A stretch of DNA of 64,000 bases from Eledone cirrhosa (Eukaryota). The position numbers and the translations under genes were made by a program. Below, piece by piece: positions 16,645-64,000 of the stretch. Under the pieces are notes generated by a model. It saw only the letters and a list, made by a program, of their open reading frames with translations. It did not search any database and was not told where the DNA came from. The stretch's first letter is position 1, and the number at the start of each line of letters is the position of its first letter. Location: positions 1,736,001 through 1,800,000 of the forward strand of contig OZ024743.1 in the NCBI GenBank assembly GCA_964016885.1, given 5' to 3'.

Positions 16645-16714
16645 CCTCATTACCAGAGGTTTCCCGAATGAGGCGAATACGAAATAAACGACTTCATTCG
16701 TTCGTCAGACGAGG
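16645..16714 (-). ncRNA. Type I hammerhead ribozyme
   Basis: cctcgt-CTGACGA-a cgaatgaag..cctcattcg g-GAAACC-tct-GGTA-atgagg; lies just before a (TA)n tract. Confidence 0.8.
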
Positions 16715-18244: not shown

Positions 18245-18289
18245 AGTCATAGTCCTTTCGTCACACACTCTGTGACCTCTTCAGTGACT
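18245..18289 (-). ncRNA. Minimal HHR in the 3' region of the Penelope-like element
   Basis: agtca-CTGAAGA-g gtcaca gagtg tgtgac-GAAA-ggac-TA-tgact; same strand as, and downstream of, the GIY-YIG ORF. Confidence 0.75.
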
Positions 18290-18614
18290 GGGGATTCCTT
18301 TCTTTGTTTCTGTGCCTTTCCTTTCTTCTATCCTACGCCATTTTGTTTCTGTGTGTGTGTTGTGTGCTCAGTTTGCGCATGCGCCACATCCGGGTGTCTG
18401 TGTGTGTTTGTGTTCATTTATCTATTTGTTTATTTATTTATTTATTTATTGTTGGTTGGTTGTTTGTTCTATGTGTGTGTGTGTTTTCATTTTGTCCTGT
18501 GTGTGTTTTCATTTTGTCCTGTGTGTGTTTTCATTTTGTCCTTAATTGTAAGTTGTTTGTTCTATGTGTGTGTGTGTGTTTTCATTTTGTCCTGTGTGTG
18601 TTTTCATTTTGTCC

Positions 18615-19310
18615 TTAATTGTAAGTTGTGATGTTGCTGTTCCACTCATATTTTCTATTTAATTTTGGTTTTAATTCTTTTATGCTTACTGCCTCTGTAA
18701 TTTGCCTAAACATTGCGTCTTTTCTGTGTGTGGATTCTATTTTTATTTCTATGTTCTCTAATCTACCCCTGTGTTCTATCTTAGCATGTTGGTAGAGCAC
18801 AGATGATTCTTTATTATCTTGGAGGTCTCGCCAGTGTTCATTTATTCGTTCCCCTATACTACGAGCTGTCTCACCTATGTACACTATATTTTTGTTTCTA
18901 CATTGTCCTTCAGTACATCTTATGCTATACACTACATTTCTAGTTTTACAGTTAATATGGGGGCTTATTTTACAGGTTATACATTTTTTATCTATACATG
19001 AGGGTCTTTGGAACGGGTATGTCTTGCTAATAAGTGTTTTTACGGAGGTACCTGGTCTTTCTACTATCTTAATATTGAGATTATGTTTATTTAGGGCCCT
19101 TCTAAATTTGTAGGCTAGTTCGCCTCTAGGGGTTGTATTGATGAACATTACACTCTGGTATTTATTGCTAGCATACCATGAGTTTATTCTATTGGCCTTG
19201 TTCCTAGTTCTTTCTATTCTATTCCAAAATTTGCTCCTATACAAGGGGCAGGTCCCATTTATGTCATTATTTCCCATTTTTTCCCATTTGGTTCTGGCTC
19301 CTTTATACAC
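18615..19310 (-). pseudogene. Penelope-like element 3' part: Zn-finger linker and GIY-YIG endonuclease (5'-truncated, no RT)
   Basis: CITC..NCKTRNVVYSIRC..C..VYIGETARSIGERINEH..H..RQITEAVSI..KPKLN. Confidence 0.88.
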
Positions 19311-19345
19311 TCTGATTCTATCTCTCTGATTGTAGCCAGAGAACT

Positions 19346-20070
<725 letters not shown>

Positions 20071-32923: not shown

Positions 32924-34240
<1,317 letters not shown>

Positions 34241-43141: not shown

Positions 43142-43221
<80 letters not shown>

Positions 43222-44046
43222 AATAAGATTTCGCTTCAAGCATAGCTTTATACAACATGTATAGAACTTTCGTATTTCTAAAGGCATACGGTTTTAGGAA
43301 GCTGTAGCTATGTAAACACCGGGGGAGGGGGGTGCTAACGCTCTCTAAGCAAGGGGGACACCTGTCTATGCATTTCAGGCTTGACTGGCTTTCGTCAGGA
43401 CGATCCCTCCCCCGCTTGCGACTGCTGGACTTAAAAAGCCGAGAATATATAGTTTTCTCGTCTGTGCAAATGAGGTGATTAATCTCATTTGCATATGAAG
43501 CTCTATAAGTTGGCTCAACTTATAATAGAAAAGAAATAAGATTTCGCTTCAAGCATAGCTTTATACAACATGTATAGAACTTTCGTATTTCTAAAGGCAT
43601 ACGGTTTTAGGAAGCTGTAGCTATGTAAACACCGGGGGAGGGGGGTGCTAACGCTCTCTAAGCAAGGGGGACAACTGTCTATGCATTTCAGGCTTGACTG
43701 GCTTTCGTCAGGACGATCCCTCCCCCGCTTGCGACTGCTGGACTTAAAAAGCCGAGAATATATAGTTTTCTCGTCTGTGCAAATGAGGTGATTAATCTCA
43801 TTTGCATATGAAGCTCCATAAGTTGGCTCAACTTATAATAGAAAAGAAATAAGATTTCGCTTCAAGCATAGCTTTATACCACAGGGCGTTAGCCCCCCCC
43901 CATCCCCGGTGTTTACATAGCTACGGCTTCCTAAAACCGTATTTCTTTAGAAATACGAAATTTTTATACATATTGTATAAAGCTATGCTTGAAGCGAAAT
44001 CTTATTTCTTTTCTATTATAAGTTGAGCAAGCTAATGCAGCTTCAT

Positions 44047-44094
44047 ATGCAAATGAGATTAATCACCTTATTACACAGACGAGAAAACTATATG
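44047..44094 (+). promoter_or_regulatory. Octamer plus TATA upstream of the HHR
   Basis: ATGCAAAT at 44047 and tatatg at 44089 (tatata in the minus copies, 43446-43451). Confidence 0.5.
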
Positions 44095-44112
44095 TTCTCG
44101 GCTGTTTTCAAG

Positions 44113-44205
44113 TCCAGCAGTTGCAAGCGGGGGGGGGGGATCGTCCTGACGAAGGCCCGTCAAGCCTGAAATGCATAGACAGTTGTCCCCCTTGCTTCTG
44201 CTGGA
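44113..44205 (+). ncRNA. Type I HHR with 1-bp stem III, palindromic TGCA loop and long interrupted stem I
   Basis: tccagcag..aagc..ggggga tc gtc-CTGACGA-aggc ccgtcaa gcct-GAAA-tgca-TA-gac agttg tccccc..gctt ctgctgga. Confidence 0.85.
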
Positions 44206-44285
44206 TACCATCAGAGGGCGTTAGCCCCCCGGTGTTTACATAGTTACAGCTTCCTAAAACCGTATGTCTTTAGAAATACGAAATT

Positions 44286-44316
<31 letters not shown>

Positions 44317-44350
44317 GTATGTGTGTATGTATATGTATATATATATATAT

Positions 44351-44480
44351 ATAAAAGGTAAACAGAAATAACAACACAATCGGTACAGTATATGGAAGGT
44401 TTATATTAAGTTAACGCTTGATATAGCTGGAAGAGGGTCTTAAAGTTTTGGACGCTAGTCCTTCATCAGAAGAAAGAATG
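44351..44480 (-). mobile_element. Terminal-repeat fragment with a degenerate HHR; short inverted partner at 45226-45262
   Basis: tctt-CTGATGA-a ggac tagc gtcc-AAAAC-ttt-aaga. Confidence 0.5.
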
Positions 44481-45292: not shown

Positions 45293-45301
<9 letters not shown>

Positions 45302-45588
45302 GAAAACACAGGTAAGCATTAAGAGAAGGATTTTATCCAGGTATTTACGACCGTTTCATTGGTAAGTGCAACCTTATATTGCTATACTGCAAATAGCATC
45401 CACTTAATTACTACCAACTGACAAACCCCAGTTTGTCAGTTGGTAGTAATTTGGACGTGAACAACAATTATAATTAAGTGGCTGCTATTTGCAGTATAGC
45501 AATATAAGGTTGCACTTACCAATGAAACAGTCGTAAATACCTGGATAAAATCCTTCTCTTAATGCTTACCTGTGTTTTCTCTTTTATA
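45293..45588. mobile_element. Inverted terminal-repeat pair with a nested 21-bp junction hairpin
   Basis: Arms 45293-45410 and 45471-45588; GAAACaGTC (HHR 3' half only); hairpin at 45406-45451. Confidence 0.75.
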
Positions 45589-49804: not shown

Positions 49805-50372
49805 ATGGTTTCTGATTTAGGCACAAGGCCAGCAATTTTTGTGGAAGGGAAAGTCAACGAAATCGACCCCAGTGCATGACTGGTACTTTATTTTATCGAC
49901 CCCGTAAGGATGAAAGGCAAAGCTAACCTCGACGGGCCGTAACTCTACGCCGCGAAGCAGTGTGTCCGACGCTCTACCGATACTGTCAATCCATCGCCCT
50001 CACTCACTACAGTATTAATAACAACAAAGAACAGCGTATGAATGGTGGACTCCTAACTTCCTAGGTGGACACTCCTACCAAAACAACCAGCTACAACTAT
50101 TTACAGAAATAAGGATTTCTAGTATAGGCATAAGGCCAGTAATTTGGGGGGAGGGGAAAGTTGATTAAATCGACCCCAGTACGTTACTGGTGCTTTATTT
50201 GATCGATCTCGTAAGGATGAAAGGCAAAGTTAACCTCGGTGGGATTTGAACTCAGACTGTAAAGGATGGTAACTCTATGCTGCAAAGCATGGCGTCCGAC
50301 TCTTTCCCGATATTGCCAATCCACCGCCCTCATTTACAAAAACAATAACACCAAAGAACAGCGTATGAATGG
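49805..50372 (-). mobile_element. Two tandem SINE-plus-flank units (49805-50075 and 50110-50372)
   Basis: Both SINE copies are followed on + by caaagaacagcgtatgaatggtggac. Confidence 0.8.
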
Positions 50373-53300
50373 TGGACACCTAACTTCGGTAGTGGACACT
50401 TAGCTTCATTGTGGACACCTAACTTCGGTAGTGGACACTTAGCTTCATTGTGGACACCTAACTTCAGTAGTGGACACTTAGCTTCATTGTGGACACCTAA
50501 CTTCGGTAGTGGACACTTAGCTTCATTGTGGACACCTAACTTCGGTAGTGGACACTTAGCTTCATTGCGGACACCTAACTTCAGTAGTGGACACTTAGCT
50601 TCATTGTGGACACCTAACTTCGGTAGTGAACACTTAGCTTCATTGTGGACACCTAACTTCGGTAGTGGACACTTAGCTTCATTGCGGACACCTAACTTCA
50701 GTAGTGGACACTTAGCTTCATTGTGGACACCTAACTTCGGTAGTGGACACTTAGCTTCATTGTGGACACCTAACTTCGGTAGTGGACACTTAGCTTCATT
50801 GTGGACACCTAACTTCGGTAGTGGACACTTAGCTTCATTGTGGACACCTAACTTCGGTAGTGGACACTTAGCTTCATTGTGGACACCTAACTTCGGTAGT
50901 GGACACTTAGCTTCATTGCGGACACCTAACTTCAGTAGTGGACACTTAGCTTCATTGTGGACACCTAACTTCGGTAGTGGGCACTTAGCTTCATTGTGGA
51001 CACCTAACTTCGGTAGTGGACACTTAGCTTCATTGCGGACACCTAACTTCAGTAGTGGACACTTAGCTTCATTGTGGACACCTAACTTCGGTAGTGGACA
51101 CTTAGCTTCATTGTGGACACCTAACTTCGGTAGTGGACACTTAGCTTCATTGTGGACACCTAACTTCGGTAGTGGACACTTAGCTTCATTGCGGACACCT
51201 AACTTCAGTAGTGGACACTTAGCTTCATTGCGGACACCTAACTTCGGTAGTGGACACTTAGCTTCATTGTGGACACCTAACTTCGGTGGTGGACACTTAG
51301 CTTCATTGTGGACACCTAACTTCGGTAGTGGACACTTAGCTTCATTGCGGACACCTAACTTCAGTAGTGGACACTTAGCTTCATTGTGGACACCTAACTT
51401 CGGTAGTGGACACTTAGCTTCATTGTGGACACCTAACTTCGGTAGTGGACACTTAGCTTCATTGCGGACACCTAACTTCAGTAGTGGACACTTAGCTTCA
51501 TTGTGGACACCTAACTTCGGTAGTGGACACTTAGCTTCATTGTGGACACCTAACTTCGGTAGTGGACACTTAGCTTCATTGTGGACACCTAACTTCGGTA
51601 GTGGACACTTAGCTTCATTGCGGACACCTAACTTCAGTAGTGGACACTTAGCTTCATTGTGGACACCTAACTTCGGTAGTGGACACTTAGCTTCATTACG
51701 GACACCTAACTTCGGTAGTGGACACTTAGCTTCATTACGGACACCTAACTTCGGTAGTGGACACTTAGCTTCATTACGGACACCTAACTTCGGTAGTGGA
51801 CACTTAGCTTCATTACGGACACCTAACTTCGGTAGTGGACACTTAGCTTCATTGTGGACACCTAACTTCAGTAGTGGACACTTAGCTTCATTGTGGACAC
51901 CTAACTTCGGTAGTGGACACTTAGCTTCATTGCGGACACCTAACTTCGGTAGTGGACACTTAGCTTCATTGCGGACACCTAACTTCGGTAGTGGACACTT
52001 AGCTTCATTGCGGACACCTAACGTCAGTAGTGGACACTTAGCTTCATTGCGGACACCTAACGTCAGTAGTGGACACTTAACTTCATTGTGGACACCTAAC
52101 TTCGGTAGTGGACACTTAGCTTCATTGCGGACACCTAACGTCAGTAGTGGACACTTAGCTTCATTGTGGACACCTAACTTCGGTAGTGGACACTTAGCTT
52201 CATTGCGGACACCTAACTTCGGTAGTGGACACTTAGCTTCATTGTGGACACCTAACTTCGGTAGTGGACACTTAGCTTCATTGCGGACACCTAACTTCGG
52301 TAGTGGACACTCAGCTTCATTGCGGACACCTAACGTCAGTAGTGGACACTTAGCTTCATTGTGGACACCTAACTTCGGTAGTGGACACTTAGCTTCATTA
52401 CGGACACCTAACTTCGGTAGTGGACACTTAGCTTCATTGCGGACACCTAACGTCAGTAGTGGACACTTAGCTTCATTGTGGACACCTAACTTCAGTAGTG
52501 GACACTTAGCTTCATTGTGGACACCTAACTTCGGTAGTGGACACTTAGCTTCATTACGGACACCTAACTTCGGTAGTGGACACTTAGCTTCATTGCGGAC
52601 ACCTAACGTCAGTAGTGGACACTTAGCTTCAGTGCGGACACCTAACTTCGGTAGTGGACACTCAGCTTCATTGCGGACACCTAACGTCAGTAGTGGACAC
52701 TTAGCTTCATTGTGGACACCTAACTTCAGTAGTGGACACTTAGCTTCATTACGGACACCTAACTTCAGTAGTGGACACTTAGCTTCATTACGGACACATA
52801 ACTTCGGTAGTGGACACTCAGCTTCATTGCGGACACCTAACTTCGGTAGTGGACATTTAGCTTCGTTGTGGACACCTAACTTCGGTAGTGGACACTTAGC
52901 TTCATTGTGGACACCTAACTTCGGTAGTGGACACTTAGCTTCATTGTGGACACCTAACTTCGGTAGTGGACACTTAGCTTCATTGTGGACACCTATTTTC
53001 GGTAGTGGACACTTAGCTTCATTGTGGACACCTAACTTCGGTAGTGGACACTCAGCTTCATTGTGGACACCTAACTTCGGTAGTGGACACTTAGCTTCAT
53101 TGCCGACACCTAACTTCGGTAGTGGACACTCAGCTTCATTGTGGACACCTAACTTCGGTAGTGGACACTTAGCTTCATTGTGGACTCCTAACTTCGGTAG
53201 TGGACATTTAGCTTCATTTTGGACACCTAACTTCGGTAGTGGACACTTAGCTTCATTGTGGACACCTAACTTCGGTAGTGGACACTTAGCTTCATTACGG

Positions 53301-56300
53301 ACACCTAACTTCAGTAGTGGACACTTAGCTTCATTGTGGACACATAACTTCGGTAGTGGACACTTGGCTTCATTGTGGACACCTAACTTCGGTAGTGGAC
53401 ACTTAGCTTCATTGTGGACTCCTAACTTCGGTAGTGGACACTTAGCTTCATTGTGGACACCTAACTTCGGTAGTGGACACTTAGCTTCATTGCGGACACC
53501 TAACTTCGGTAGTGGACACTTAGCTTCATTGTGGACACCTAACTTCGGTAGTGGACACTTAGCTTCATTGTGGACACCTAACTTCGGTAGTGGACACTTA
53601 GCTTCATTGTGGACACCTAACTTCGGTAGTGGACACTTAGCTTCATTACGGACACCTAACTTCGGTAGTGGACACTCAGCTTCATTGTGTACACCTAACT
53701 TCGGTAGTGGACACTTAGCTTCATTGCGGACACCTAACGTCAGTAGTGGACACTTAGCTTCATTGTGGACACCTAACTTCGGTAGTGGACACTTAGCTTC
53801 ATTGTGGACACCTAACTTCGGTAGTGGACACTTAGCTTCATTACGGACACCTAACGTCAGTAGTGGACACTTAGCTTCATTGTGGACACCTAACGTCGGT
53901 AGTGGACACTTAGCTTCACTGTGGACACCTAACTTCGGAAATGGACACTTAGCTTCATTGCGTCACCTAACTTCGGAAATGGACACTTAGCTTCATTGCG
54001 GACACCTAACTTCGGAAATGGACACTTAGCTTCATTGCGGACACATAACTTCGGTAGTGGACACTCAGCTTCATTGTGGACACCTAACTTCGGAAATGGA
54101 CACTTAGCTTCATTGCGGACACCTAACTTCGGTAGTGGACACTTAGCTTCATTGTGGACACCTAACTTCGGTAGTGGACACTTAGCTTCATTGCGGACAC
54201 CTAACTTCAGTAGTGGACACTTAGCTTCATTGTGGACACCTAACTTCGGTAGTGGACACTTAGCTTCATTGTGGACACCTAACTTCGGTAGTGGACACTT
54301 AGCTTCATTGTGGACACCTAACTTCGGTAGTGGACACTTAGCTTCATTACGGACACCTAACTTCGGTAGTGGACACTTAGCTTCATTGTGGACACCTAAC
54401 TTCAGTAGTGGACACTTAGCTTCATTGTGGACACCTAACTTCGGTAGTGGACACTTAGCTTCATTGCGGACACCTAACTTCGGTAGTGGACACTTAGCTT
54501 CATTGCGGACACCTAACTTCGGTAGTGGACACTTAGCTTCATTGCGGACACCTAACGTCAGTAGTGGACACTTAGCTTCATTGCGGACACCTAACGTCAG
54601 TAGTGGACACTTAACTTCATTGTGGACACCTAACTTCGGTAGTGGACACTTAGCTTCATTGCGGACACCTAACGTCAGTAGTGGACACTTAGCTTCATTG
54701 TGGACACCTAACTTCGGTAGTGGACACTTAGCTTCATTGCGGACACCTAACTTCGGTAGTGGACACTTAGCTTCATTGTGGACACCTAACTTCGGTAGTG
54801 GACACTTAGCTTCATTGCGGACACCTAACTTCGGTAGTGGACACTCAGCTTCATTGCGGACACCTAACGTCAGTAGTGGACACTTAGCTTCATTGTGGAC
54901 ACCTAACTTCGGTAGTGGACACTTAGCTTCATTACGGACACCTAACTTCGGTAGTGGACACTTAGCTTCATTGCGGACACCTAACGTCAGTAGTGGACAC
55001 TTAGCTTCATTGTGGACACCTAACTTCAGTAGTGGACACTTAGCTTCATTGTGGACACCTAACTTCGGTAGTGGACACTTAGCTTCATTACGGACACCTA
55101 ACTTCGGTAGTGGACACTTAGCTTCATTGCGGACACCTAACGTCAGTAGTGGACACTTAGCTTCATTGCGGACACCTAACTTCGGTAGTGGACACTCAGC
55201 TTCATTGCGGACACCTAACGTCAGTAGTGGACACTTAGCTTCATTGTGGACACCTAACTTCAGTAGTGGACACTTAGCTTCATTACGGACACCTAACTTC
55301 AGTAGTGGACACTTAGCTTCATTACGGACACATAACTTCGGTAGTGGACACTCAGCTTCATTGCGGACACCTAACTTCGGTAGTGGACATTTAGCTTCGT
55401 TGTGGACACCTAACTTCGGTAGTGGACACTTAGCTTCATTGTGGACACCTAACTTCGGTAGTGGACACTTAGCTTCATTGTGGACACCTAACTTCGGTAG
55501 TGGACACTTAGCTTCATTGTGGACACCTAATTTCGGTAGTGGACACTTAGCTTCATTGTGGACACCTAACTTCGGTAGTGGACACTCAGCTTCATTGTGG
55601 ACACCTAACTTCGGTAGTGGACACTTAGCTTCATTGCCGACACCTAACTTCGGTAGTGGACACTCAGCTTCATTGTGGACACCTAACTTCGGTAGTGGAC
55701 ACTTAGCTTCATTGTGGACTCCTAACTTCGGTAGTGGACACTTAGCTTCATTGTGGACACCTAACTTCGGTAGTGGACATTTAGCTTCATTGTGGACACC
55801 TAACTTCGGTAGTGGACACTTAGCTTCATTGTGGACACCTAACTTCGGTAGTGGACACTTAGCTTCATTACGGACACCTAACTTCAGTAGTGGACACTTA
55901 GCTTCATTGTGGACACATAACTTCGGTAGTGGACACTTGGCTTCATTGTGGACACCTAACTTCGGTAGTGGACACTTAGCTTCATTGTGGACTCCTAACT
56001 TCGGTAGTGGACACTTAGCTTCATTGTGGACACCTAACTTCGGTAGTGGACACTTAGCTTCATTACGGACACCTAACTTCGGTAGTGGACACTCAGCTTC
56101 ATTGTGTACACCTAACTTCGGTAGTGGACACTTAGCTTCATTGCGGACACCTAACGTCAGTAGTGGACACTTAGCTTCATTGTGGACACCTAACTTCGGT
56201 AGTGGACACTTAGCTTCATTGTGGACACCTAACTTCGGTAGTGGACACTTAGCTTCATTACGGACACCTAACGTCAGTAGTGGACACTTAGCTTCATTGT

Positions 56301-59300
56301 GGACACCTAACGTCGGTAGTGGACACTTAGCTTCATTGTGGACACCTAACTTCGGAAATGGACACTTAGCTTCATTGCGGACACCTAACTTCGGAAATGG
56401 ACACTTAGCTTCATTGCGGACACCTAACTTCGGAAATGGACACTTAGCTTCATTGCGGACACCTAACTTCAGTAGTGGACACTTAGCTTCATTGTGGACA
56501 CCTAACTTCGGTAGTGGACACTTAGCTTCATTGTGGACACCTAACTTCGGTAGTGGACACTTAGCTTCATTGTGGACACCTAACTTCGGTAGTGGACACT
56601 TAGCTTCATTGCGGACACCTAACTTCAGTAGTGGACACTCAGCTTCATTGTGGACACCTAACTTCGGTAGTGGACACTTAGCTTTATTGCCGACACCTAA
56701 CTTCGGTAGTGGACACTCAGCTTCATTGTGGACACCTAACTTCGGTAGTGGACACTTAGCTTCATTGTGGACTCCTAACTTCGGTAGTGGACACTTAGCT
56801 TCATTGTGGACACCTAACTTCGGTAGTGGACATTTAGCTTCATTGTGGACACCTAACTTCGGTAGTGGACACTTAGCTTCATTGTGGACACCTAACTTCG
56901 GTAGTGGACACTTAGCTTCATTACGGACACCTAACTTCAGTAGTGGACACTTAGCTTCATTGTGGACACATAACTTCGGTAGTGGACACTTGGCTTCATT
57001 GTGGACACCTAACTTCGGTAGTGGACACTTAGCTTCATTGTGGACTCCTAACTTCGGTAGTGGACACTTAGCTTCATTGTGGACACCTAACTTCGGTAGT
57101 GGACACTTAGCTTCATTGCGGACACCTAACTTCGGTAGTGGACACTTAGCTTCATTGTGGGCACCTAACTTCGGTAGTGGACACTTAGCTTCATTGTGGA
57201 CACCTAACTTCGGTAGTGGACACTTAGCTTCATTGTGGACACCTAACTTCGGTAGTGGACACTTAGCTTCATTACGGACACCTAACTTCGGTAGTGGACA
57301 CTCAGCTTCATTGTGTGCACCTAACTTCGGTAGTGGACACTTAGCTTCATTGCGGACACCTAACGTCAGTAGTGGACACTTAGCTTCATTGTGGACACCT
57401 AACTTCGGTAGTGGACACTTAGCTTCATTGTGGACACCTAACTTCGGTAGTGGACACTTAGCTTCATTACGGACACCTAACGTCAGTAGTGGACACTTAG
57501 CTTCATTGTGGACACCTAACGTCGGTAGTGGACACTTAGCTTCATTGTGGACACCTAACTTCGGAAATGGACACTTAGCTTCATTGCGGACACCTAACTT
57601 CGGAAATGGACACTTAGCTTCATTGCGGACACCTAACTTCGGAAATGGACACTTAGCTTCATTGCGGACACCTAACTTCAGTAGTGGACACTTAGCTTCA
57701 TTGTGGACACCTAACTTCGGTAGTGGACACTTAGCTTCATTGTGGACACCTAACTTCGGTAGTGGACACTTAGCTTCATTGTGGACACCTAACTTCGGTA
57801 GTGGACACTTAGCTTCATTGCGGACACCTAACTTCAGTAGTGGACACTCAGCTTCATTGTGGACACCTAACTTCGGTAGTGGACACTTAGCTTCATTGCC
57901 GACACCTAACTTCGGTAGTGGACACTCAGCTTCATTGTGGACACCTAACTTCGGTAGTGGACACTTAGCTTCATTGTGGACTCCTAACTTCGGTAGTGGA
58001 CACTTAGCTTCATTGTGGACACCTAACTTCGGTAGTAGACATTTAGCTTCATTGTGGACACCTAACTTCGGTAGTGGACACTTAGCTTCATTGTGGACAC
58101 CTAACTTCGGAAATGGACACTTAGCTTCATTGCGGACACCTAACTTCGGAAATGGACACTTAGCTTCATTGCGGACACCTAACTTCGGAAATGGACACTT
58201 AGCTTCATTGCGGACACCTAACTTCGGTAGTGGACACTCAGCTTCATTGTGGACACCTAACTTCGGAAATGGACACTTAGCTTCATTGCGGACACCTAAC
58301 TTCGGTAGTGGACACTTAGCTTCATTGTGGACACCTAACTTCGGTAGTGGACACTTAGCTTCATTGCGGACACCTAACTTCAGTAGTGGACACTTAGCTT
58401 CATTGTGGACACCTAACTTCGGTAGTGGACACTTAGCTTCATTGTGGACACCTAACTTCGGTAGTGGACACTTAGCTTCATTGTGGACACCTAACTTCGG
58501 TAGTGGACACTTAGCTTCATTGCGGACACCTAACTTCAGTAGTGGACACTTAGCTTCATTGTGGACACCTAACTTCGGTAGTGGACACTTAGCTTCATTG
58601 CGGACACCTAACTTCAGTAGTGGACACTTAGCTTCATTGTGGACACCTAACTTCGGTAGTGGACACTTAGCTTCATTGTGGACACCTAACTTCGGTAGTG
58701 GACACTTAGCTTCATTGTGGACACCTAACTTCGGTAGTGGACACTTAGCTTCATTGTGGACACCTAACTTCGGTAGTGGACACTTAGCTTCATTGTGGAC
58801 ACCTAACTTCGGTAGTGGACACTTAGCTTCATTGCGGACACCTAACTTCAGTAGTGGACACTTAGCTTCATTGTGGACACCTAACTTCGGTAGTGGACAC
58901 TTAGCTTCATTGTGGACACCTAACTTCGGTAGTGGATACTTAGCTTCATTGCGGACACCTAACTTCAGTAGTGGACACTTAGCTTCATTGTGAACACCTA
59001 ACTTCGGTAGTGGACACTTAGCTTCATTGTGGACACCTAACTTCAGTAGTGGACACTTAGCTTCATTGTGGACACCTAACTTCGGTAGTGGACACTTAGC
59101 TTCATTGTGGACACCTAACTTCGGTAGTGGACACTTAGCTTCATTGCGGACACCTAACTTCAGTAGTGGACACTTAGCTTCATTGTGGACACCTAACTTC
59201 GGTAGTGGACACTTAGCTTCATTACGGACACCTAACTTCGGTAGTGGACACTTAGCTTCATTACGGACACCTAACTTCGGTAGTGGACACTTAGCTTCAT

Positions 59301-62300
59301 TACGGACACCTAACTTCGGTAGTGGACACTTAGCTTCATTGTGGACACCTAAGTTCAGTAGTGGACACTTAGCTTCATTGTGGACACCTAACTTCGGTAG
59401 TGAACACTTAGCTTCATTGCGGACACCTAACTTCGGTAGTGGACACTTAGCTTCATTGCGGACACCTAACTTCGATAGTGGACACTTAGCTTCATTGCGG
59501 ACACCTAACGTCAGTAGTGGACACTTAGCTTCATTGCGGACACCTAACTTCGGTAGTGGACACTTAGCTTCATTGCGGACACCTAACGTCAGTAGTGGAC
59601 ACTTAGCTTCATTGTGGACACCTAATCTCGGATAGTGGACACTTAGCTTCATTGCGGACACCTAACTTCGGTAGTGGACACTTAGCTTCATTGTGGACAC
59701 CTAACTTCTGTAGTGGACACTTAGCTTCATTGCGGACACCTAACTTCGGTAGTGGACACTCAGCTTCATTGCGGACACCTAACGTCAGTAGTGGACACTT
59801 AGCTTCATTGTGGACACCTAACTTCGGTAGTGGACACTTAGCTTCATTACGGACACCTAACTTCGGTAGTGGACACTTAGCTTCATTGCAGACACCTAAC
59901 GTCAGTAGTGGACACTTAGCTTCATTGCGGACACCTAACTTCGGTAGTGGACACTCAGCTTCATTGCGAACACCTAACGTCAGTAGTGGACACTTAGCTT
60001 CATTGTGGACACCTAACTTCAGTAGTGGACACTTAGCTTCATTACGGACACCTAACTTCAGTAGTGGACACTTAGCTTCATTACGGACACCTAACTTCGG
60101 TAGTGGACACTCAGCTTCATTGCGGACACCTAACTTCGGTAGTGGACATTTAGCTTCGTTGTGGACACCTAACTTCGGTAGTGGGCACTTAGCTTCATTG
60201 TGGAGACCTAACTTCGGTAGTGGACACTTAGCTTCATTGTGGACACCTAACTTCGGTAGTGGACACTTAGCTTCATTGTGGACACCTATCTTCAGTAGTG
60301 GACACTTAGCTTCATTGTGGACACATAACTTCGGTAGTGGACACTTAGCTTCATTGTGGACACCTAACTTCGGTAGTGGACACTTAGCTTCATTGTGGAC
60401 ACCTAACTTCGGTAGTGGACACTTAGCTTCATTGTGGACACCTAACTTCGGTAGTGGACACTTAGCTTCATTACGGACACCTAACTTCGGTAGTGGACAC
60501 TCAGCTTCATTGTGGACACCTAACTTCGGTAGTGGACACTTAGCTTCATTGCGGACACCTAACGTCAGTAGTGGACACTTAGCTTCATTGTGGACACCTA
60601 ACTTCGGTAGTGGACACTTAGCTTCATTGTGGACACCTAACTTCGGTAGTGGACACTTAGCTTCATTACGGACACCTAACGTCAGTAGTGGACACTTAGC
60701 TTCATTGTGGACACCTAACGTCGGTAGTGGACACTTAGCTTCATTGTGGACACCTAACTTCGGAAATGGACACTTAGCTTCATTGCGGACACCTAACTTC
60801 GGAAATGGACACTTAGCTTCATTGCGGACACCTAACTTCGGAAATGGACACTTAGCTTCATTGCGGACACCTAACTTCGGTAGTGGACACTCAGCTTCAT
60901 TGTGGACACCTAACTTCGGAAATGGACACTTAGGTTCATTGCGGACACCTAACTTCGGTAGTGGACACTTAGCTTCATTGTGGACACCTAGCTTCGGAAA
61001 TGGACACTTAGCTTCATTGCGGACACCTAACTTCAGTAGTGGACACTTAGCTTCATTGTGGACACCTAACTTCGGTAGTGGACACTTAGCTTCATTACGG
61101 ACACCTAACTTCGGTAGTGGACACTTAGCTTCATTACGGACACCTAACTTCGGTAGTGGACACTTAGCTTCATTACGGACACCTAACTTCGGTAGTGGAC
61201 ACTTAGCTTCATTGTGGACACCTAACTTCAGTAGTGGACACTTAGCTTCATTGTGGACACCTAACTTCGGTAGTGGACACTTAGCTTCATTGCGGACACC
61301 TAACTTCGGTAGTGGACACTTAGCTTCATTGCGGACACCTAACTTCGGTAGTGGACACTTAGCTTCATTGCGGACACCTAACGCCAGTAGTGGACACTTA
61401 GCTTCATTGCGGACACCTAACGTCAGTAGTGGACACTTAGCTTCATTGCGGACACCTAACGTCAGTAGTGGACACTTAGCTACATTGTGGACACCTAACT
61501 TCGGTAGTGGACACTTAGCTTCATTGCGGACACCTAACTTCGGTAGTGGACACTTAGCTTCATTGCGGACACCTAACGTCAGTAGTGGACACTTAGCTTC
61601 ATTGTGGACACCTAACTTCGGTAGTGGACACTTAGCTTCATTGCGGACACCTAACTTCGGTAGTGGACACTTAGCTTCATTGTGGACACCTAACTTCGGT
61701 AGTGGACACTTAGCTTCATTGCGGACACCTAACTTCGGTAGTGGACACTCAGCTTCATTGCGGACACCTAACGTCAGTAGTGGACACTCAGCTTCATTGT
61801 GGACACCTAACTTCGGTAGTGGACACTTAGCTTCATTACGGACACCTAACTTCGGTAGTGGACACTTAGCTTCATTGCGGACACCTAACGTCAGTAGTGG
61901 ACACTTAGCTTCATTGCGGACACCTAACTTCGGTAGTGGACACTCAGCTTCATTGCGGACACCTAACGTCAGTAGTGGACACTTAGCTTCATTGTGGACA
62001 CCTAACTTCAGTAGTGGACACTTAGCTTCATTACGGACACCTAACTTCAGTAGTGGACACTTAGCTTCATTACGGACACCTAACTTCGGTAGTGGACACT
62101 CCGCTTCATTGCGGACACCTAACTTCGGTAGTGGACATTTAGCTTCGTTGTGGACACCTAACTTCGGTAGTGGACACTTAGCTTCATTGTGGACACCTAA
62201 CTTCGGTAGTGGACACTTAGCTTCATTGTGGACACCTAACTTCGGTAGTGGACACTTAGCTTCATTGTGGACACCTAATTTCGGTAGTGGACACTTAGTT

Positions 62301-64000
62301 TCATTGTGGACACCTAACTTCGGTAGTGGACACTCAGCTTCATTGTGGACACCTAACTTCGGTAGTGGACACTTAGCTTCATTGCGGACACCTAACTTCG
62401 GTAGTGGACACTCAGCTTCATTGTGGACACCTAACTTCGGTAGTGGACACTTAGCTTCATTACGGACACCTAACTTCAGTAGTGGACACTTAGCTTCATT
62501 GTAGACACATAACTTCGGTAGTGGACACTTAGCTCCATTGTGGACACCTAACTTCGGTAGTGGACACTTAGCTTCATTGTGGACACCTAACTTCGGTAGT
62601 GGACACTTAGCTTCATTGTGGACACCTAACTTCGGTAGTGGACACTCATCTTCATTGTGGACACCTAACTTCGGTAGTGGACACTCATCTTCATTGTGGA
62701 CACCTAACTTCGGTAGTGGACACTTAGCTTCATTGCGGACACCTAACGTCAGTAGTGGACACTTAGCTTCATTGTGGACACCTAACTTCGGTAGTGGACA
62801 CTTAGCTTCATTGTGGACACCTAACTTCGGTAGTGGACACTTAGCTTCATTGTGGACACCTAACGTCGGTAGTGGACACTTAGCTTCATTGTGGACACCT
62901 AACTTCGGAAATGGACACTTAGCTTCATTGCGGACACCTAACTTCGGAAATGGACACTTAGCTTCATTGCGGACACCTAGCTTCGGAAATGGACACTTAG
63001 CTTCATTGCGGACACCTAACTTCGGTAGTGGACACTCAGCTTCATTGTGGACACCTAACTTCGGAAATGGACACTTAGGTTCATTGCGGACACCTAACTT
63101 CGGTAGTGGACACTTAGCTTCATTGCGGACACCTAACTTCGGTAGTGGACACTTAGCTTCATTGCGGACACCTAACTTCGGTAGTGGACACTCAGCTTCA
63201 TTGTGGACACCTAAATTCGGAAATGGACACTTAGCTTCATTGCGGACACCTAACTTCGGTAGTGGACACTTAGCTTCATTGCGGACACCTAACTTCGGTA
63301 GTGGACACTTAGCTTCATTGCGGACACCTAACTTCGGTAGTGGACACTCAGCTTCATTGTGGACACCTAACTTCGGTAGTGGACACTCAGCTTCATTGTG
63401 GACACCTAACTTCGGTAGTGGACACTTAGCTTCATTGTGGACACCTAACTTCGGTAGTGGACACTTAGCTTCATTACGGACACCTAACTTCGGTAGTGGA
63501 CACTTAGCTTCATTGCGGACACCTAACTTCGGTATTGGACACTTAGCTTCATTGTGGACACCTAACTTCGGTAATGGACACTTAGCTTCATTGCGGACAC
63601 CTAACTTCGGTAGTGGACACTTAGCTTCATTGCGGACACCTAACTTCGGTAGTGGACACTTAGCTTCATTGCGGACACCTAACTTCGGTAGTGGACACTT
63701 AGCTTCATTGCGGGCACCTAACTTCGGTAGTGGACACTTAGCTTCATTGCGGACACCTAACTTCGGTAGTGGACACTTAGCTTCATTGCGGACACCTAAC
63801 TTAGGTAGTGGACACTCAGCTCCATTGTGGACACCTAACTTCGGTAGTGGACACTTAGCTTCATTACGGACACCTAACTTCGGTAGTAGACACTTAGCTT
63901 CATTGTGGACACCTAACTTCGGTAGTGGACGCTTAACTTCATTGCGGACACCTAATTTCAGTACTGGACACTTAGCTTCATTACGGACACCTAACTTCGG
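50373..64000. repeat. 39-bp tandem satellite, ~350 copies, running off the window end
   Basis: Unit ggacacctaacttcggtagt-ggacacttagcttcattgt with few recurring SNP variants and single-base indels at ~53963 and ~59630. Confidence 0.99.

Follow-up and report, generated by a model that had tools for sequence, protein, structure and literature searches.

Structure of the locus

We analysed a 64,000-nucleotide stretch of the Eledone cirrhosa genome (contig OZ024743.1; hereafter the window), in which a hammerhead-bearing repeat with two arms in opposite orientation is flanked by microsatellites (Table 1). An earlier note, made from the sequence alone, had described a tandem array with an exact 313-bp period that flips its orientation near 43880 into a variant of about 332 bp. 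The flip was confirmed, and a 332-nt unit was indeed found on the other strand. The 313-bp period is present and spans the entire left arm (2.1 units), but it is not exact, with two differences between the monomers (43361/43674 and 43504/43817). The left arm is 5'-truncated at unit position ~121 and terminates about 160 nt past the cleavage site, at what we call the long end of the family, and the right arm terminates at the short end, ~111-119 nt past the cleavage site. Within the right arm, the two copies of its repeated part show 4 differences in 71 sites and a 9-nt indel. Overlaps and short inserts like that at the junction between the arms are typical across the family.

Table 1. Features of the locus, of related elements in the window and of the joins discussed in the text (window coordinates unless a locus is named)
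Feature	Position	Strand	Remark
Young PLE 3' end	18250-19361	-	own minimal hammerhead at 18284-18250
Older broken PLE remnant	33435-34188	-	related to the Neptune-type protein
(TA)35 target microsatellite at the long 3' end	43147..43216	.	family ends mostly enter dinucleotide repeats
Left arm	43217..43879	-	2 x 313 bp + 37 bp, read right to left
Private 15-nt deletion joint	43346..43347	-	second copy 43659/43660; also in a 149-nt contig of a public run
Hammerhead core 1 (CUGACGA...GAAA-UGCA-UA)	43367..43398	-	predicted cut after 43367
Hammerhead core 2	43680..43711	-	predicted cut after 43680; stem I and stem II mismatches as in core 1
Head-to-head junction	43878..43880	.	both arms 5'-truncated; 2-nt overlap
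Right arm	43880..44286	+	~1.2 units; unit 332 nt long, including a C run expanded by 9 nt
Hammerhead core 3	44146..44177	+	predicted cut after 44177; stem II intact, C-A mismatch in stem I
15-nt segment, in nearly all family copies	44198..44212	+	predicted to pair with 44112-44120
(CT)n/(TA)n microsatellite at the short 3' end	44287..44353	.
L106 retrozyme-PLE join	L106:1374-2243		head-to-head, short and long ends, one arm per element, 7-nt fold-back at the joint
L123 retrozyme-PLE join	L123:1472-1598		same direction
L134 retrozyme-PLE join	L134:1136-2360		same direction

As the note had proposed, there is one hammerhead ribozyme per monomer. Three type I cores were found, on the minus strand in the array and on the plus strand in the inverted arm, and in each of them stem III is one A-U pair closed by TGCA. 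The cut predicted from core 3 falls at the position that the note had expected, and the perfect stem II (aggc/gcct) attributed to the inverted variant is intact there and only there. Core 1 has an A-C mismatch in stem II, a C-A mismatch in stem I and a changed first internal-loop base. A stem I mismatch thus affects 3/3 window ribozymes, and a stem II mismatch together with a deletion in the outer stem affects 2/3; the family majority is intact. Little or no activity is predicted for the window's own ribozymes. Rfam returned no hammerhead match at the locus, either at the gathering score or at E-values up to 10, so the ribozymes are called from the core motif and the stems visible in the sequence; its miRNA matches at the locus reflect the inverted repeat. 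With plain folding, the hammerhead was missed for both array motifs and recovered only partly for the third.

Both window units fold better than shuffled sequences (circular z about -4), and the family majority unit is highly self-paired (circular fold z -7.6). The 15 nucleotides said to complete the outer stem as an extra of the inverted variant do pair in the predicted fold, but they are the family norm rather than an addition. Two internal hairpins of the monomer were also only partly borne out: tataagttg/caacttata is there, but its perfect pairing is owed to a change in one monomer only, and tgcaaatgag/ctcatttgca is present, but its perfect pairing needs a base absent from most family contigs. 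Of 13 common variants across the family, one disrupts a predicted pair, against 52% of the rare variants (p=0.001). That common variants spare the predicted fold indicates that the source RNA was under structural selection. The unit has no Pol III A and B boxes. The octamer ATGCAAAT lies at unit position 193, ~130 nt before the cut site (44047-44054 on the plus strand, and equivalents). Such an octamer may have an snRNA-type promoter role in newt satellite 2; a literature search did not confirm a link to newt satellite promoters.

The window holds other repeats as well. Further hammerhead-core motifs in several other repeat families lie at 1495, 6892, 29335, 32248, 39361 and 46995 on the plus strand and at 16708, 32078, 36764 and 41353 on the minus strand; a strict stem test was passed only by 1495 and 46995 among them, and by none in 30 shuffles. 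The pair 32078/32248 forms another two-armed inversion ending in (TA)n, and 45293-45588, with 118-bp inverted arms that are 98% complementary and adjoin (TA)n, is likely another two-armed element end. A 39-bp satellite of ~350 copies extends from 50372 to 64000; both of its strands have stop-free frames of ~1,210 codons, which probably follow simply from a unit length that is a multiple of three. Genome-wide, a loose hammerhead motif has 16,896 matches, those of the present family included.

A dispersed family of decayed ~322-nt hammerhead repeats

The window locus is a single decayed representative of a non-coding hammerhead repeat of ~322 nt that is dispersed in thousands of places. The genome copy survey called for by the note gave 1,517 exact matches of the 19-nt ribozyme motif in the 3.0-Gb genome and 0 for the reversed control, and first-look candidate counts genome-wide were 2,981 and 3,478. 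The classification as a retrozyme-type element stands, as the repeat is non-coding and multi-copy and has a canonical type I hammerhead with a one-pair, palindromic-loop stem III. We conclude that the feature is real and represents a new family of an already known type of element. A metagenome scan with the ribozyme motif gave 0 matches, and we found no published account of the ~322-nt family or of two-armed retrozyme insertions, examples of which supplements may hold.

For the statistics we used 192 motif-selected loci. The first 76 came from the first 100 listed motif matches, all on contig C1, leaving out same-locus duplicates, one already-sampled locus and five of six segmental-duplication copies; the 116 further loci are those left when four duplicates were dropped and a few listed places left out. 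All samples were chosen by motifs spanning the cut site, so every locus has at least one arm that crosses it.

Family copies are ~4-5% decayed (median 5.2% from the ~322-nt majority unit for similarity-selected copies), and their decay is neutral, with a strand-symmetric mutation spectrum, a CpG excess and no A-to-G bias. In the motif-selected set the ribozyme core changes at the background rate (24/545 versus 819/20,128). Against this counts the first, similarity-selected set, in which the core looked conserved (14/782 versus 4.9%, a background that includes common variants). At loci L017, L043 and L044 same-arm repeats are only ~1% apart, so young insertions exist, which counts against our preferred explanation. 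RNA-editing scars were considered and discarded, as A>G changes (175/14,467) show no excess over T>C (221/15,107) on the sense strand.

Arms mostly hold one to two units, and most are shorter than two; no long arrays were found, and the 46 exact dimers genome-wide include no adjacent ones. Over 200 arms, length decays by a nearly constant ~0.3 per 50 nt, without a step at one unit, and the longest arm measures 763 nt. The 5' breakpoints show no clustering at the cut site (7/218 versus 7.4 expected by chance). The absence of clustering, the 763-nt arms and the scarcity of dimers together suggest a template continuous across the cut site. They fit a circular template or an uncleaved multimer from a source missing from the assembly, two forms that these observations do not separate.

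Two-armed insertions with two fixed 3' ends

The inversion seen in the window is the usual insertion form of the family: 109/192 loci are simple head-to-head inversions with their 3' ends outward, and two more are compound. The 3' ends of the family fall at two sites, ~115 and ~160 nt past the cut site and therefore ~45 nt apart. One long and one short end were found at 65 of the 71 inverted loci with two classifiable ends (p=6e-14); at the other 38 inverted loci at least one end is broken. The window locus follows this rule, with the long end on the left and the short end on the right. In the first sample, 88/101 long or short ends were followed by a dinucleotide repeat, mostly (TA)n.

The pairing of a long with a short end matches the known tail footprint of Penelope-like elements (PLEs). 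The available portion of PMC8557442 describes a PLE layout of partial tandems, an inverted 5'-truncated copy, a tail at one end and (TA)n targets. In vitro, a PLE protein cuts and extends both strands, initiates at two internal RNA sites whose spacing equals the tail, and uses uncleaved RNA as its main substrate, according to the portion available of PMC11167929. The family has several features of a PLE-mobilised non-autonomous element: fixed 3' ends, 5' truncation, an inverted copy, a tail at one end and an AT-rich microsatellite target. No ORF with RT plus GIY-YIG was found inside a family element.

The same architecture could arise if the unit were only the terminal repeat (pLTR) of an unseen autonomous PLE and the copies its truncated ends, with no independent small RNA. 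Besides the PLE-type layout, this would accommodate the many arms under two units long. However, the arms run on around the 322-nt unit whatever their phase, up to the longest arm observed, without shared upstream coding sequence; the PLE coding matches in family loci come from a lineage whose ribozyme is different; and the predicted fold kept by common variants extends over the whole unit. We consider this explanation quite improbable.

A probable single template lineage for both arms

The note had interpreted the locus as a rolling-circle product that switched between two RNA templates, of 313 and 332 nt. We compared opposite arms at sites diagnostic for subfamilies, where they disagree at 55/488 within loci versus 9,376/21,527 (44%) between loci; the window arms disagree at 2/21. 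Rare alleles were shared at 16/193 in within-locus arm comparisons versus 154/9,167 between loci, and the window arms share them at unit positions 4, 61, 71 and 89. At other sites the window arms differ at 16/264 (6%), compared with 413/5,779 at other inverted loci, and same-arm repeats elsewhere differ at 216/2,482. Both window arms are therefore of one subfamily, and the 6% by which they differ is in line with ageing at other loci. In an unrelated 310-nt family, the fresh two-armed arrays at two loci that were checked had 0-1 differences, whether units of one arm or of opposite arms were compared.

The two-template model is largely refuted by these data. It would account for the near identity of the 313-nt units and for arms that differ by ~6% plus indels, and direct joins between the family and a PLE at three other loci suggest that insertions from two RNAs may be possible. 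Yet the arms share their subfamily and rare alleles and differ no more than at other loci, the right arm's own repeat diverges too much for a fresh copy of one circle, the stems of the 313-nt unit are broken, and a separate 313-nt template would lack any second locus in the genome. A recent switch between two templates is hence highly improbable.

At some loci (L035, L036, L055, L119, L147 and L160) opposite arms differ by only 0-3% close to the junction though each arm has aged, hinting at gene conversion between inverted arms. In the window arms the shared rare alleles form a mosaic pattern.

Origin of the 313-nt unit

The 313-nt unit carries a private 15-nt deletion, which removes one strand of a 9-bp stem. 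The deletion joint has two matches in the whole genome, both at the window locus, no second 313-type locus was found in the genome, and the best other genome matches to the 313-nt unit are 84-88% identical. One 313 unit exists outside the assembly, as a 149-nt contig of public runs X1 and X2 (one sample) equals 43237-43385, in the left monomer, exactly. This contig is unbroken across a site that distinguishes the monomers and has a depth of ~20, near that of a private part of the single right arm. Neither contigs nor RAD reads spanned the joint between the two arms, which speaks neither for nor against it.

The second monomer could be a polymorphism or an assembly error. An error, either two alleles joined in tandem or a faulty consensus, would leave a true left arm of ~1.1 units and would explain why the monomers differ at only two sites, both derived in the left monomer, as well as why the contig runs through a distinguishing site at about the depth of a single arm. 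The sample may, however, come from another individual with an unduplicated allele, and contigs from public runs drop variants and show presence only. Moreover, assembly contigs reach hundreds of Mb, and locus L058 holds a similar duplication, two units 1/314 apart between partial copies that are ~10% different, inside an old insertion. We judge an assembly error unlikely but worth keeping in mind, and it would leave the rest of our preferred explanation standing.

The 313 pair might alternatively be the homogenised remnant of arms that began as long arrays and shrank by recombination. The genome does contain young two-armed arrays with 3-10 identical units per arm: 310/311-nt hammerhead arrays with identical units lie at 1.24 Mb and 5.39 Mb of contig C1 (G000:C1; L308-L335). 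Shrinkage is nonetheless improbable, given the steady fall in arm length without a step at one unit, and the private deletion must predate the 313 pair anyway. The 313-bp tandem is likely a local duplication after ageing and not a template switch; the simplest history is a deletion, then decay, then unequal exchange between terminal repeats of ~40 nt. One observation counts against this, as the left arm's short terminal repeat shows 0-1 difference in 38 nt versus ~3 expected for an old copy.

We hold with good confidence that the locus is an old, decayed two-armed insertion, probably written into (TA)n by the endonuclease-reverse transcriptase of a PLE, whose left arm later lost 15 bases and was probably duplicated in place. 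A PLE protein would have nicked both target strands and started reverse transcription of each arm from its own internal site, the two sites lying ~45 nt apart (the tail). The two cDNAs, copied from one template lineage in circular or uncleaved multimeric form, presumably read past the ribozyme cut site, ended at random points and were then end-joined. In the left arm, unequal exchange between the terminal repeats (~40 nt) may later have produced the 313-bp tandem.

A Neptune-type PLE as candidate partner

The window also contains the 3' end of a young PLE. It encodes a C-terminal GIY-YIG-type domain and a CX4CX2C linker, by which it is classed as Neptune-type following the available part of PMC8557442. 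The element has at least 150 copies that are 98-99% identical, ORFs of up to 1,240 aa and a full-length 4.1-kb unit elsewhere in the genome. Pfam and PDB sequence searches did not recognise its protein, which was identified from visible RT, DKG-like, CX4CX2C and GIY-YIG-type motifs; its only named longer relative is from Octopus vulgaris, and Atlas look-alikes with HTH_animal, GIY-YIG and RVT_1 offer a lead. This PLE likewise has two ends, 60 nt apart. The 322-nt unit shows no sequence similarity to its terminal repeats, so the partner is not fixed by homology.

Three of the 192 family loci join the Neptune-type PLE directly and with fitting geometry (Table 1). At L106 (G000:C1:48.95 Mb), the retrozyme arm has the short end and the Neptune-type arm the long end, both in (TA)n. 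Two other direct or near joins have unfitting geometry, and the remaining neighbours are separated by (TA)n. Fitting joins are about as many as neighbours with (TA)n between them or unfitting geometry, so shared targets and deletion could explain the joins. No further joins were found among 30 PLE loci, and when the L106 hybrid was used as a DNA query, all matches were PLE copies. In the top matches, the PLE subfamily at L106 lies ~2% from its majority sequence, which makes it somewhat younger than most copies of the retrozyme. The link between the retrozyme and the Neptune-type PLE is suggestive only.

The likeliest enzyme source would be the Neptune-type PLE lineage of this genome, an attribution for and against which the chances are about balanced. 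More tentatively, and on balance doubtfully, two-RNA insertions may be possible and the hybrids may name the enzyme donor: a Neptune dimer would carry the retrozyme RNA and its own RNA, one per target strand and without homology, while copying a ribozyme-made circle. L106 would then be direct genomic evidence for a Neptune dimer carrying both RNAs, and if the hybrid insertions are real, the partner becomes directly testable.

Comparison with known systems

The window locus itself is ordinary transposon debris. It also calls for caution: a pair of near-identical ribozyme units is usually taken to mark an active retrozyme, but such dimers can arise by local duplication of dead copies. The family, judged by its sequences, behaves like a non-autonomous PLE and has the sequence characteristics of metazoan non-LTR retrozymes. 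With such retrozymes, as described in the accessible text of Cervera and de la Pena 2020 (PMC7229834) and of Li, Clavereau and Pollet 2026 (10.64898/2026.07.22.740005), it shares a ~320-nt non-coding unit with one canonical type I hammerhead (the class spans 150-400 nt), G+C below 45%, high self-pairing and thousands of copies. Tandems of at least two units occur in many copies, the window dimer being a local duplication, and none of the window copies has all its ribozyme stems intact. The single-pair helix III with a palindromic tetraloop also appears in the available description of axolotl HHR_Amex1. The family differs from metazoan retrozymes in having mostly one to two units per arm and no long arrays, and in its two-armed inverted form with two fixed ends, which the accessible text does not describe for retrozymes. 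Unlike many Xenopus retrozymes in the same partial sources, it has no similarity to the pLTR of its candidate partner.

The young 310/311-nt arrays have the same two-armed layout in (TA)n, the one-pair helix III and the palindromic loop. They are fresh and consist of many identical units, whereas the 322-nt family is old with short arms, and the two families show no similarity outside the motif.

Endonuclease-positive PLE insertions (Neptune/Naiad), in the available portions of PMC8557442, PMC11167929 and PMC4209133, share with the family 5' truncation, partial tandems, an inverted 5'-truncated copy, a one-end tail, (TA)n targets and a hammerhead near the 3' end. The family differs from them in lacking an ORF and in having a canonical rather than a minimal hammerhead, and its tail of ~45 nt compares with 30-40 nt in the published excerpt and 60 nt in the Neptune-type element of this genome. 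A PLE origin of retrozymes is argued from co-occurrence and pLTR similarity in the accessible part of 10.64898/2026.07.22.740005, where one of nine dimers tested cleaved. The rule of one long and one short end, together with a single template lineage, matches the two-site initiation described in vitro, and the family thereby lends genomic support to the published proposal that PLEs mobilise animal retrozymes.
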